64,000 nt of DNA from an uncultured Flavobacteriales bacterium (GTDB taxonomy: Bacteria; Pseudomonadota; Alphaproteobacteria; UBA8366; JADFVY01): the NCBI GenBank assembly GCA_964347475.1, contig CAYFYY010000007.1, forward strand, positions 1,261-65,260, read 5' to 3'. The notes beneath the pieces were generated by a model. That model worked only from the letters and a program-made list of their open reading frames with translations. It did no database searches and was not told the origin of the DNA. A program made the position numbers and the translations under genes. Shown piece after piece: positions 37,457 to 41,409 of this stretch; position 1 is the stretch's first letter, and the number at the start of each line of letters is the position of its first letter.

Positions 37457-37820
37457 CCATCAAATCCGGCACGTGGCGTCTCGTCGACGCCACCCGCCCG
37501 ATGTGCCTGTCCACTGGACAGATCACAATGTTGCCGTCGCTCCGAAGAATCTCAACCATGCGTGTCTACCAATCCCGGTCCAGGGCAAGCACGAGTCTTC
37601 GAGGCTGAGATAACGTCGGCCGCGCTGACGGCACCCAGCCGCGGTGATCGTGGACGTTATTGCCTGTATCGGCGTGGACATCATTCCCGAAGAATCGGCC
37701 CGGCATGAACTGCAAACATTTTGCGCCCGTCAATACCGCCGTGCGACATCGCGTCAACTGGCGTTGGCCGCACCGATGCCCAAATATATTAGATATTTCT
37801 AATTTTTTGAGATCAGGAGG

Positions 37821-38255
37821 ATGCCGATGGCAACGACGGCACGAGTCAAATGGATCGAAGGATCCCGTTTCATCGGGGAATCGCAGAGCGGCCATGCCGT
37901 CGTCATGCAGGGCCTGGCCGGGGAGGGGGAACCGTCGGTGGGCATCCGGCCGATGGAGATGCTGTTGCTCGGCATGGGCGGCTGCACGGCGATCGACGTC
38001 GTGATGATCCTGCAGAAGTCGCGCGAGGCGGTGACCGACGTGGTCGTCGAGATCGAAGCCGAGCGGGCCGAATCGGTGCCCAAGGTCTACAAACGGATCC
38101 ACGCGCACTACGTCGTCACCGGCCGGGGTTTGAGGCCATCTGCGGTCGAGCGTGCGGTCAAGCTGTCGGCCGAAAAATACTGTTCCGCCACCGTCATGCT
38201 GGGGGCAACGGCCACCGTCACGCACGACTTCGAGGTCGTCGAGGCGGACGGTTAG
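37821..38255 (+). CDS. OsmC/YhfA family protein
   Basis: RPMEMLLLGMGGCT.IDVV.IL.K, LSAEKYCSAT; AGGAGG RBS. Confidence 0.92.
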   Translation: MPMATTARVKWIEGSRFIGESQSGHAVVMQGLAGEGEPSVGIRPMEMLLLGMGGCTAIDVVMILQKSREAVTDVVVEIEAERAESVPKVYKRIHAHYVVTGRGLRPSAVERAVKLSAEKYCSATVMLGATATVTHDFEVVEADG

Positions 38256-38311
38256 CGCGTAATCGGTGACGTTGGGCTCGGCCGTATCGGCGCGACCTTA
38301 CGACAGACGCC

Positions 38312-38929
38312 TCAATCGTCCGGGAGGTATCGGAAATGGCCGCTGATCGGGTAGGTGAACAGCATGTCTTTCAGCTCTGGCCCGCGGCCGATGTTGTGCG
38401 CGATCAACGGGCGCCTGCCGTCGGCCGAGCGGCGATCGGTGACGATGCCGATGTGCGGAAGGTTGCCGGGCAGACGCCAGGTGACCAGATCGCCGGGCCG
38501 ATAGGTGTTCGGGTCATCGCTGACCGCAAGTGAGCGGCCGTGCCGCGTGAAGAATGTCTCAAGATTGGGCACGCGCCGATGATCGATGCTCCGGTCCGGT
38601 CGTGTGAGGCCCCAGCGCTGCGGATAGGCCGCGAATTCTCGGATCATGTCTTCATGGACCTCTTTTTGCAGATCGATGCCGAGTCCTGAGCGGTAAGCGC
38701 GAACGACCAGGTCGGTGCATACGCCGATATCGTCCGGCACGTCCCCGCCCGGATAGGCGAGGGTCCGGTACGAGCCATCGTAGACGACCCTGTGCCCGGT
38801 GCGCTCGATCGCCGCCGCCACAAGGTCCTGCCCGGACTCGCCCGGCTGCCGCTGCGCCTGGGCCGCCGGCGGCAACAGGATGACGATGGCGGCCAGATGC
38901 AGAATGGCGCTCCGCACTATCACATGCAC
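38312..38929 (-). CDS. DUF1287 domain exported protein
   Basis: YDGSY..L.YPGGDVP...GVCTDLVVRAYR, IDHRRVPNL, PGDLVTW, HIGIV, HNIG; GTG start after AGGAGG. Confidence 0.88.
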   Translation of the reverse strand: MHVIVRSAILHLAAIVILLPPAAQAQRQPGESGQDLVAAAIERTGHRVVYDGSYRTLAYPGGDVPDDIGVCTDLVVRAYRSGLGIDLQKEVHEDMIREFAAYPQRWGLTRPDRSIDHRRVPNLETFFTRHGRSLAVSDDPNTYRPGDLVTWRLPGNLPHIGIVTDRRSADGRRPLIAHNIGRGPELKDMLFTYPISGHFRYLPDD

Positions 38930-39017
38930 GAGGACCTCCTGCCATGATCGGAGGAGCATTTCGCCCCCTCGGCGTCATCAAATCACTGCAATCCGGCAAA
39001 AAAGCGGCGGCGAACGC

Positions 39018-39491
39018 TCAACCGGAGCACGCCGGCACGAGGCCGCGCTTCTCCAGGTAACGTTGGTGGTGCTCCTCGGCCCGCCAGAAGGCGCCGGCGG
39101 GAACAATCTCGGTGACGATAGGCTGGCGGTGCCGTCCGGACTCTTCCAGTGCGCGCTTGGAACTGCGGGCCTGGCGCTCCTGCGCAGCGTCGTGCACGAA
39201 GATGACCGAGCGAAACGCGCTGCCGACGTCGGGACCCTGGCGGTCCCGTTGCGTCGGATCGTGGAAGCGCCAGAACGAGCTCAGCAGTTCGGTATAGCTC
39301 ACGCTGGCCGGGTCGTACTCCACGCGTACCACCTCAACGTGTCCTGTCGTGCCCGAGCCGACCTCCCGGAATGTCGGGTTCGGCACGTGGCCGCCCATGA
39401 ACCCGACTTCCGTGGCGGTGACGCCCGGGATGAGCCTGACGGCCGCCTCGACGCACCAGAATCGTCCGGCGGCGAATGTTGCGGTGGCCAT
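39018..39491 (-). CDS. msrA: Peptide-methionine (S)-S-oxide reductase MsrA homologue with an altered active site
   Basis: MsrA fold motifs ([33 protein letters not shown]), but GRFWC instead of GCFW. Confidence 0.85.
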
Positions 39492-39593
39492 GGCGAGGCC
39501 CTCCTCCGTCTCGCATGTATAAGAGTATCACGTTCCCTAGGTCCGGCAACCGTCGTGTCCGCCGCGGCAGCGCTCGTTATGGGCGTGAAGCGT

Positions 39594-40505
39594 CTATTGG
39601 CTCTCGACGTCGGTCTTGCTCCGTTCGCAATTGGCGGCCCGCTCCATTGCGGCGCAGACGGCTGACTGGTCCTCGTCGCCATGGCCCTGCGCCACTGCGG
39701 CGTAATAGGTCTGCAAGGCCGCGTGATAGATCGGTGTCGGCACGAGATGCCGTGCGGCGTGCTCAACGATCAGCCGCGAGTCCTTCAGCGGGATCGAGAA
39801 ATTCATGCCTTCCCTGCGGTAGTCGTTCTCCGCCATCAGGGCGCCGCGCACCTCGAACATGGCCGACGACGAGCCGCTGCCGCTGATCACCTCGTGGATC
39901 ATTTTCGGGTCGAGGCCGGACTTCATGCCGAGCACCATGACTTCGGCCGCGACGCTGTTGTGCACCAGGTTCAGGATGTTGCCGCAGAACTTCATCTTCA
40001 TGCCGCAGCCGAATTCGCCGACGAAATGGCTCCGGCGCGTGAACAGGTCGACGATCGGCCGTACCCGCTCCCAGGCCCGTCTGTCGCCGCTGCCGAAGGC
40101 GGTGAGCTTGCGATCGAGCGCCATGATGCGATTGCCGCTCACCGGGCAATCGAGCAGGATCCGGCCGGCTTCCGCCAGGGCGTCGCGGGCCTTCTCCTTG
40201 TCCGCGATCGAGAAGGTGGAAAGCTCGACGACGATCTGGCCCTCCCGCCCGCCGTGCACCAGCCCGTCCGCCCCGGACACCACCGCGTGCAGGGACTCGG
40301 CGGTCGGCAGGCAGAGAAAGACCACGTCCGCCTGGTCCGCGGTTTCGCGCGGTGTCGCCGCGGCCTCGGCGTGTGCCGCAACGAGATCCGATGTGCGCTT
40401 TGGGTCGATATCGCACCCTATGACGCGACGCCCTGCCGCGACGAGATGGCCCGCGATGGCCGAACCCAGCACGCCGAGCCCGATGAATCCGACAGTGTCG
40501 CTCAT
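39594..40505 (-). CDS. NAD(P)-dependent beta-hydroxyacid dehydrogenase family
   Basis: GFIGLGVLG, DCPVSG, MKFCGN, GSGSSSAMF, KD. Confidence 0.88.
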   Translation of the reverse strand: MSDTVGFIGLGVLGSAIAGHLVAAGRRVIGCDIDPKRTSDLVAAHAEAAATPRETADQADVVFLCLPTAESLHAVVSGADGLVHGGREGQIVVELSTFSIADKEKARDALAEAGRILLDCPVSGNRIMALDRKLTAFGSGDRRAWERVRPIVDLFTRRSHFVGEFGCGMKMKFCGNILNLVHNSVAAEVMVLGMKSGLDPKMIHEVISGSGSSSAMFEVRGALMAENDYRREGMNFSIPLKDSRLIVEHAARHLVPTPIYHAALQTYYAAVAQGHGDEDQSAVCAAMERAANCERSKTDVESQ

Positions 40506-40525
40506 CTTTCCCTCCACCATCGTGG

Positions 40526-40682
40526 TGGAGACCTTTGCAGAAAACGCCAAATCGTCATTGCGAGGCGGCCGAAGGCCGACGCGGCAATCCAGGATGCCGC
40601 GGAAACGAGAGCTTTTCCTGGATCGCCGCGACTGCATTGCAGCCTCGCGATGACGAAGTCCAGTTTCGTGCAAAGGTCTCCA
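40526..40682. repeat. Palindromic intergenic element, family A, copy 2 (with perfect 14-bp terminal inverted repeat)
   Basis: TGGAGACCTTTGCA (40526-40539) / TGCAAAGGTCTCCA (40669-40682) enclose a core 40553-40655 matching 3532-3634 in inverted orientation. Confidence 0.87.
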
Positions 40683-40860
40683 TGATGAGGAGTGTAGCGG
40701 TTGTTCGAGGCGCCGCAAACGGTGTGCGGCGAAGGAATGCGACAACGTTTGGAGATCGGCGCGCTGACACCGATTGATGGAAATTTAAGACATTGGCTGG
40801 TATTGATGTGGTCGGCGCTTGCGGCGACCGGAACAACGGAGCTGGAACGTGCGGAACCGA

Positions 40861-41409
40861 ATGTCAGTGGCTGGCCGGAACTGCGTGGTCGTCATCGCGC
40901 TGGCGGCGCTCGCCGCCTGCAGCAGTCCGAAGGTCAGTGATTCCCTGTATCGTGACAGCGAGGTCGGCATCTCGAAGCGCATCGTCCGGTGCCGCGTCCT
41001 CGAGGCGCGCGAGGTGGCGATCCGTGGTGACGACGCGCCCGAGAAGGGCGAAGCCGTCGGGTCCATCGTTGGCCTTCTCGTGGGCGCCATCATCGGCAGC
41101 CAAATCGGCGACGGTGCCGGCAGGGACATCGCGGTCCAGGTGGGCGCCACCGCCGGTGCGGCGGCCGGCGGCGGCGCCGGGCGCCAGGCCGCCGACAAGT
41201 TGAGCGAGCGTCCCGGCATCGAGTACTCGATCATCCTCGACGATGGCCAGGAGCTGACGCTGGTCCAGGATTTCCTCGAAACCGACCGCATCGTGCAGCC
41301 TGGCGAGACCTGCCGCCTGCAGATCGAGGCCGAGGGCATGAACCGCGTTCTGCCCGCCGAGCACCTCCCCGAGCGGATCAACGCGCCGAAGACGACGACG
41401 GTCCAGTAA
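40861..41409 (+). CDS. Glycine-zipper 2TM outer-membrane lipoprotein (SlyB-like)
   Basis: LAAC lipobox; GSIVGLLVGAIIGSQIGDG.G; EY.I.LDDG...T.VQ. Confidence 0.85.
   Translation: MSVAGRNCVVVIALAALAACSSPKVSDSLYRDSEVGISKRIVRCRVLEAREVAIRGDDAPEKGEAVGSIVGLLVGAIIGSQIGDGAGRDIAVQVGATAGAAAGGGAGRQAADKLSERPGIEYSIILDDGQELTLVQDFLETDRIVQPGETCRLQIEAEGMNRVLPAEHLPERINAPKTTTVQ

Follow-up and report, generated by a model that had tools for sequence, protein, structure and literature searches.

MsrA is among the best-studied of the enzymes that repair oxidative damage. To our knowledge, every MsrA mechanism described so far begins with a cysteine (or selenocysteine) nucleophile. In MsrAs of the GCFWC type, the cysteine three positions further on does not make the attack but serves as the resolving cysteine. 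In E. coli numbering, which is used below for family positions, Cys51 is the nucleophile, Glu94 is the acid catalyst, and Tyr82 and Tyr134 are the proton donors (PMC6210582). In the about 105 canonical short-type MsrAs recovered in our search, Cys51, Tyr82, Cys86, Glu94 and Tyr134 are all invariant, and so are Phe52, Trp53 and Asp129. Here we analyze a gene, present in a 64,000-nucleotide stretch of DNA (the window) from an uncultured bacterium, that encodes an MsrA-like protein departing from this pattern at its catalytic centre. The features of the locus are listed in Table 1.

Table 1. The MsrA-like gene, its active-site codons and its neighbours in the window
Feature	Coordinates	Strand	Basis
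OsmC-like gene, convergent, conserved at the end of the locus	37821..38255	+	domain search, locus comparison
DUF1287 gene, downstream and co-oriented, signal-peptide-like N-terminus	38312..38959	-	PF06940, 224.8 bits
CDS of the 157-aa putative MsrA-fold pseudo-reductase, stop codon included	39018..39491	-	ORF list, PF01625, TIGR00401, AF2, Foldseek
Codon 93, TTT, Phe93 (SAFRS), replacing Tyr134	39213..39215	-	alignment
Codon 53, GAG, Glu53 (GHVE), acid catalyst Glu94 kept	39333..39335	-	alignment
Codon 45, GGC, Gly45, replacing the conserved Cys86 (VCSG to VGSG)	39357..39359	-	alignment
Codon 41, TTC, Phe41, replacing Tyr82	39369..39371	-	alignment
Codon 13, TGC, Cys13 (GRFWC), at the resolving-Cys position of GCFWC-type MsrAs	39453..39455	-	alignment
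Codon 10, CGA, Arg10, replacing the catalytic Cys (E. coli Cys51)	39462..39464	-	alignment; codon read
Shine-Dalgarno-like GGAGGAGGG, 7 nt 5' of the MsrA-like ATG	39499..39507	-	read directly in the sequence
3-Hydroxyisobutyrate-dehydrogenase-like (HIBADH-like) gene, upstream and co-oriented	39594..40505	-	domain search, locus comparison

An MsrA fold with an altered catalytic centre

The MsrA-like gene is an intact open reading frame with a GC3 of 0.83, on a par with that of its neighbours, and its product has no signal peptide. By sequence family and by fold this product is an MsrA. In profile searches it scored 194.1 bits against PF01625 (cut-off 23.7) and 185.5 bits against TIGR00401 (cut-off 108.1), and an AF2 model built from an alignment of 45 sequences reached a mean pLDDT of 92.5. 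Foldseek superposed this model on the poplar MsrA 2J89 with a TM score of 0.90 and an rmsd of 1.1 Å, and on solved MsrAs in general with TM scores of about 0.9 and rmsd values of 1.1-1.5 Å. The databases label the proteins of its clade as "peptide-methionine (S)-S-oxide reductase MsrA".

Residues were mapped by alignment to 2J89 and to E. coli MsrA (1FF3/6YEV), complemented by an alignment of 140 sequences. An MsrA enzyme is recognized by the nucleophilic cysteine of its GCFW motif, at the N-terminus of helix 1, and by the combination of Glu94, Tyr82 and Tyr134. At the first of these sites the MsrA-like protein has Arg10; at the other three, Glu53 is present and the two tyrosines are replaced by Phe41 and Phe93. 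The protein furthermore keeps Phe11-Trp12 (equivalent to Phe52-Trp53), Asp88 (equivalent to Asp129) and, within the C-terminal HQ-Y motif, His142 and Tyr145. Since the altered positions are invariant in the canonical MsrAs, the deviation is far beyond what could be expected by chance. The preliminary description of this locus, which was made from the sequence alone, had reported a GRFWC motif with a CGA codon in place of the catalytic cysteine, the change of both activating tyrosines to phenylalanine, and an intact reading frame in which the Glu of GHxE and the His of HQ are kept. The alignments bear out all of these points, and for codon 10 the direct reading of the codon agrees with them.

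An MsrA enzyme also relies on one or more recycling cysteines for its regeneration by thioredoxin. Cys13 and Cys155 are present in the MsrA-like protein, the G003/P0001 orthologue has Cys13 only, and the orthologues in G001/P0008 and P0012 contain no cysteine at all. The position of codon 13 is occupied in the clade by Cys, Ser or Gly. Judged by its residues, the MsrA-like protein would be unable to run the MsrA reaction as it is known.

The clade and its selective constraint

The closest database proteins form a set of about 30 sequences (P0001-P0016, P0018, P0019, P0060, P0106 and the orthologues found in genomes), all of which come from metagenome-assembled genomes (MAGs) of uncultured Alphaproteobacteria/Rhodospirillales. 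In the phylogenetic tree they are monophyletic with a support of 100/100 and nested among canonical short cytoplasmic MsrAs; the stem that leads to them is long, at 0.40 changes per site. This clade belongs to one uncultured family of the Rhodospirillales type.

Nine positions that are invariant in canonical MsrAs vary within the clade, and eight of them lie at or beside known active-site motifs. The residues encountered are C, R or S at Cys51; W, R or K at Trp53; S, C or G at Gly54; F, S, Y, T or Q at Tyr82; G, R, V, S or Y at Cys86; E, A or V at Glu94; D, Y, H or F at Asp129; A, Q, E or S at Gln133; and Y or F at Tyr134. The remainder of the protein is tightly conserved, and the only new residues that are characteristic of the whole clade are Leu20 and Ile21. 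This mosaic variation indicates that the Arg/Phe/Gly/Phe combination of the MsrA-like protein is the far end of a stepwise loss. Thus, the preliminary description was right in that the catalytic residues have been lost, but the "coordinated loss" that it proposed is not a single event. It had proposed a search for homologues with the Arg/Phe/Phe changes, and homologues do share the substitutions, both in related genomes and among the metagenome relatives. Glu94 is kept in all nine Arg-bearing sequences, and was lost only twice, in both cases in members that have Cys51. At the other extreme, P0003 still possesses the catalytic Cys, Tyr82, Glu94 and Tyr134, and members of this kind may be working reductases. 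Because some members have the full catalytic set, a function common to the clade could co-exist with catalysis.

In the sister genus g4, the orthologues L010, L011 and L016 have Arg or Lys instead of Trp53 (GCFRS, GCFKS) and Tyr or Phe instead of Asp129, and they keep Cys51 and Tyr134; the same orthologous gene has been eroded there by a different route. We also considered P0062 as an additional Arg-bearing member. Its first approximately 90 residues are near-identical to the Arg-type protein of G001/P0008, after which it continues as another type of MsrA, and we rejected it because it is probably a chimera of metagenome assembly, although it could also be a recombinant.

An orthologue at the same locus is present in each of the five genomes of the genus (G000-G004). 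The codon at the catalytic position is CGA in G000, CGG in G001 and G002, and CGT in G003, all coding for Arg, and it is TGT (Cys) in G004. Among the metagenome relatives, P0012 has CGT (Arg), its Cys-bearing neighbour P0010 has TGT, and P0016 has AGC (Ser).

Selective constraint was estimated in these five genomes as pairwise dN/dS (Nei-Gojobori), using the same genome pairs for every gene. The values for the MsrA-like gene, 0.07-0.13, are below those of the canonical msrA (0.18-0.27) and of all the neighbours, for which the ranges are 0.16-0.33 (DUF1287 gene), 0.11-0.21 (OsmC-like gene) and 0.11-0.16 (HIBADH-like gene). Pairs in which both proteins bear Arg gave 0.084 (G000-G002), 0.087 (G000-G003), 0.115 (G000-G001) and 0.10 (G003-G001), showing that the cysteine-free orthologue of G001 is equally constrained. 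The 11 genomes examined and about 20 metagenome clusters all have an intact reading frame. About 1.35 synonymous substitutions per site have accumulated among the Arg-bearing members of the genus, over which about 2.4 replacements of the arginine would be expected without constraint and none was seen. By this rough estimate, the Arg codon itself appears to be under selection. As a counter-point, Arg is mutationally the easiest replacement, requiring a T to C transition in a GC-rich genome; the only other residue that a single transition can produce from TGY is Tyr. A pseudoenzyme is characterized by the loss of catalytic residues combined with purifying selection and a reading frame that stays intact across species, and the sequences compared here place the MsrA-like gene in this category. 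Its designation in the preliminary description as an intact, non-catalytic paralogue is therefore upheld, whereas the simple decay mentioned there as the alternative is contradicted, since homologues share the substitutions and the gene is both constrained and intact.

Genomic context and recurrence of arginine at the nucleophile position

The MsrA-like gene belongs to a locus with the order Gly-zipper protein, HIBADH-like gene (variable), MsrA-like gene and DUF1287 gene, followed by the convergent OsmC-like gene, and this order is conserved in both genera of the family. Adjacency of the MsrA-like and DUF1287 genes extends to the deeper metagenome members of the clade, and it is absent in all the canonical relatives examined. 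DUF1287 genes were found in 12 of the 14 genomes of the family, versus three of the 47 other genomes of the order. On the contig of P0016, two methyltransferase genes of the opposite strand (PEMT-like and Methyltransf_31) are located between the two genes (L045:5482-6976), which shows that the two can be separated and both still be kept.

DUF1287 proteins have a Cys-His-His triad and are placed, as an uncharacterised family, in the NlpC/P60-like amidase group (PMC10318531). Because the DUF1287 protein appears to be exported and the MsrA-like protein lacks a signal peptide, a direct physical partnership between them is doubtful. Their linkage may be regulatory or historical rather than physical. 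The HIBADH-like gene is present in genus g1 and at some g4 loci. We considered that it might form a functional operon with the MsrA-like gene, and discarded this idea because elsewhere its place is taken by a gene for a metallo-beta-lactamase-fold or hypothetical protein, or is empty. The listed reading frame of the HIBADH-like gene, 383 aa at 39594-40745 (-), is over-extended: the NAD-binding domain does not begin until residue 84, and translation probably starts at 40505, with MSDTVGFIGLG.

A scan of positions 37700-41000 for promoter and terminator consensus sequences found nothing. Just after the stop codon of the MsrA-like gene, at 38990-39012 (-), we observed the motif CCGCC(C)CTTTTT-G-CC-GATT, which is partly conserved across the clade and occurs at the same intergenic place in L034-L039, L046 and L048; the consensus scan made no call there. 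This motif could be a terminator tail, or else a promoter or operator element of the DUF1287 gene.

On the tree, the distribution of Arg requires a minimum of four changes, and Arg arose independently three times or more: once or twice within the genus, once in P0012 and once in a Firmicutes lineage. The Firmicutes proteins are MsrB-MsrA fusions of 336 aa, encoded at L082:1961-2971 (+) (MAG UBA5774) and L133:3001-4011 (+), that are 76% identical to each other. The MsrA domain of the L082 protein has the motifs GRFWN and PTFEQVS, and GRFWN is also present in its relative P0123 (76% identical). Both MsrA domains are free of cysteine, and the MsrB domain looks intact (RYCINS). The arginine is encoded by CGC in one fusion and by AGA in the other; dS between them is saturated, with a dN of 0.18 over the MsrA portion. 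A separate canonical MsrA-MsrB, membrane-anchored or secreted, is encoded elsewhere in the L082 genome. Thus, these fusions resemble the MsrA-like protein in having GRFW for GCFW, an MsrA domain without cysteine, purifying selection, a canonical MsrA encoded elsewhere in the genome and, in one of the two proteins, Phe for Tyr82. On the other hand, they have an independent origin in a separate, well-supported clade, are fused to an apparently intact MsrB, keep Tyr134 and have no DUF1287 neighbour. From the placement of these lineages in the tree, arginine came to occupy the nucleophile position independently in different lineages belonging to two phyla.

A wider scan covered the 149 most similar 50%-cluster representatives of a library of 1.84 billion proteins. 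About 10 of these deviate at the catalytic positions, and approximately 7% of the 149 have the nucleophile replaced by Lys, Ser, Pro, Gly or Leu; P0350, P0373, P0288, P0364 and P0334 are representatives without a nucleophile. P0350 has Lys for the catalytic Cys, Ala for Tyr82 and Phe for Tyr134, and P0373, whose N-terminus is of the secretion type, has Ser, Thr and Phe at these three positions. Like the MsrA-like protein, both have lost the nucleophile and the two tyrosines and have kept the Glu, the Phe-Trp pair and the Asp.

Proposed function, rival readings and known systems

We propose that the MsrA-like gene encodes a selected, reductase-dead pseudoenzyme with an MsrA fold that acts independently of thiols, a reading to which we assign a probability of roughly 0.7. 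Its ancestor would have been a short cytoplasmic MsrA that became a second copy beside the canonical msrA at the base of the family, came to adjoin the DUF1287 gene and underwent a burst of change, after which Cys51, Tyr82 and Tyr134 and, in places, Trp53, Glu94 and Asp129 would no longer have been invariant. In the lineage of the MsrA-like gene, a single TGT to CGT transition would then have put Arg at the nucleophile position, where it would have been kept through synonymous changes. The groups removed would be exactly those responsible for binding and protonating the sulfoxide oxygen and for attacking the sulfur. How such a protein would work is a more tentative matter. We can envisage, with some reserve, that it acts by binding without turnover, as a reader, sensor or holder of side chains resembling Met or Met(O), or as a module that binds a partner; a role in binding or sensing Met sulfoxide had also been suggested in the preliminary description. 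Such binding would rely on two retained elements, the Phe-Trp methyl pocket and Glu53, and the ligand would be either another protein or a side chain of the Met/Met(O) kind. Arg10 would be paired with Glu53, and the two changes from Tyr to Phe would turn the polar sub-site hydrophobic. An Arg-Glu ion pair in the former polar sub-site would fit the retention of Glu94 in all Arg-bearing sequences and its loss in Cys-bearing ones only.

Several other readings have to be weighed against this proposal, of which some concern the origin of the arginine. CGA is a single step away from TGA, and selenocysteine-containing MsrAs of the GUFWC type exist (PDB 4LWJ is among the Foldseek matches of the model); accordingly, the preliminary description had raised the possibility of a selenocysteine ancestor, in which UGA changed to CGA, or of a miscalled UGA. 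However, four genomes carry CGN codons for Arg and the sister taxa have TGT, so that the series of CGT, CGG and CGA points to a route from TGT to CGT followed by third-position drift, not to one from TGA to CGA. Furthermore, a selenoprotein MsrA is recognized by an in-frame UGA accompanied by selA, selB and selC, and in the source genome, scored as 100% complete, the codon is CGA, SelA was not found and aragorn detected no tRNA-Sec among the 44 tRNAs. Neither form of the selenocysteine reading survives this comparison as more than barely conceivable. Only slightly less remote, in our estimation, is the reading that a redundant copy of msrA is decaying into a pseudogene, or that the arginine is an artefact of assembly or sequencing. 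The genome does have a canonical msrA, as the preliminary description had asked to be confirmed, and the MsrA-like copy could thus be dispensable. Against decay stand the reading frames, intact throughout the genomes and metagenome clusters, and dN/dS values lower than those of the canonical copy; we consider a decaying pseudogene to be ruled out by these data. As for an error at codon 10, it is made very unlikely by the presence of Arg in four MAGs that were assembled independently and that use three different codons for it.

The remaining readings concern what the protein does. It could still be a methionine sulfoxide reductase that uses Cys13, the cysteine of the WC pair, as the nucleophile and Cys155 for recycling, and the preservation of both cysteines, of Glu53 and of the Phe-Trp pocket would be in line with this. 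However, both tyrosine proton donors are lost, Cys155 is absent in G003/P0001, and the cysteine at this position in GCFWC-type enzymes is the resolving one. Moreover, the orthologues of G001/P0008 and P0012 have no cysteine, and that of G001 is under the same constraint, which rules out activity through the WC cysteine, a possibility left standing by the preliminary description, as the general function of the clade. With both tyrosines lost, it is also unlikely for the MsrA-like protein itself, and overall we give this reading very little credence. Alternatively, the protein could be a neofunctionalised enzyme, with a pocket consisting of Arg10, Glu53, His51, Phe11, Trp12, Phe41 and Phe93, that carries out a non-thiol reaction or acts on another small molecule. 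This reading would account for the very strong constraint (dN/dS of about 0.1), for the persistence of Arg in two phyla despite synonymous and CGN/AGR changes, and for the recurrence of like changes in the unrelated representatives P0350 (Lys) and P0373 (Ser), where the recurrent set comprises a basic residue or Ser at the position of Cys, loss of Tyr82 and Phe at Tyr134, together with retention of Glu94, Phe52, Trp53 and Asp129. On the other hand, the pocket has acquired no new clade-wide residues, Leu20 and Ile21 being the sole signatures of the clade, and it differs between the two genera (Trp53 to Arg/Lys and Asp129 to Tyr/Phe in g4), which would hardly be expected if a single new active site were conserved. 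We therefore regard a new enzyme as improbable, albeit less so than the rival readings above. Extending the pseudoenzyme reading beyond the family, it is conceivable, although we would not yet favour it, that MsrA homologues with Arg or Lys for Cys make up a recurrent, undescribed, thiol-independent class that comprises the Rhodospirillales-type clade, the Firmicutes MsrB-MsrA fusions, P0350 and others. Positive selection would have favoured the basic residue, whose pairing with Glu94 would turn the pocket that reduces sulfoxides into a non-turnover reader of Met, Met sulfoxide or another ligand, a function linked in this family to the DUF1287 and OsmC genes.

A clade that has lost its nucleophile, in which some members have no cysteine at all and which is nonetheless under tighter constraint than the true enzyme, would point to a second, non-redox job of the MsrA fold. 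As applied to the Arg-bearing members, the annotation as MsrA reductase is almost certainly mistaken, and members mislabelled in this way would inflate counts of repair capacity. The independent origins of Arg in two phyla also provide a way to test, through exchange of Arg10 and Cys, how an enzyme is converted into a binding protein. In a limited literature collection we found no report of MsrA pseudoenzymes or of MsrA homologues without cysteine, which is not proof of novelty.

One known system for comparison is the canonical MsrA of the source genome itself, a GCFWC-type protein encoded at C12:53070-53522 in a 226-aa reading frame; the genome has one MsrB, on C13. This MsrA shares the family and the position of the +3 Cys with the MsrA-like protein. 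However, the two are only about 46% identical, the canonical protein has the complete Cys, Tyr, Cys, Glu, Tyr set, and it evolves faster. Canonical MsrAs of other organisms (2J89, 1FF3 and the MsrA domain of N. meningitidis PilB, 3BQF) have the same fold and are 45-48% identical to the MsrA-like protein, with which they have in common Phe52, Trp53, Glu94, Asp129, the HDPT and RQG-D motifs and the C-terminal EE-HQ-Y. Unlike them, the MsrA-like protein has Arg for Cys51, Phe for Tyr82 and Tyr134 and Gly for Cys86, and its clade has several cysteine-free orthologues, a relaxed active site and the DUF1287 neighbour. Selenoprotein MsrAs (GUFWC, Clostridium/Alkaliphilus oremlandii, PDB 4LWJ/4LWK) share the fold and the +3 Cys and have a catalytic codon one base from CGA; unlike these, the MsrA-like gene has no UGA, its genome no Sec machinery that could be found, and its ancestral codon was TGT. 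A conceptual parallel exists with the SPS1-type paralogues of selenophosphate synthetase, whose catalytic Sec/Cys has given way to Arg, Thr or Gly: a paralogue has lost its Cys/Sec nucleophile, often to Arg, and has been kept for another function. The fold and the pathway are unrelated, however, and the likeness is one of analogy only. Pseudoenzymes occur in most enzyme families, and the category to which we assign the MsrA-like protein is thus already known. What sets this case apart is the recurrent replacement of Cys by Arg, the existence of members without any cysteine, a constraint exceeding that on the true enzyme, and the DUF1287 neighbour.
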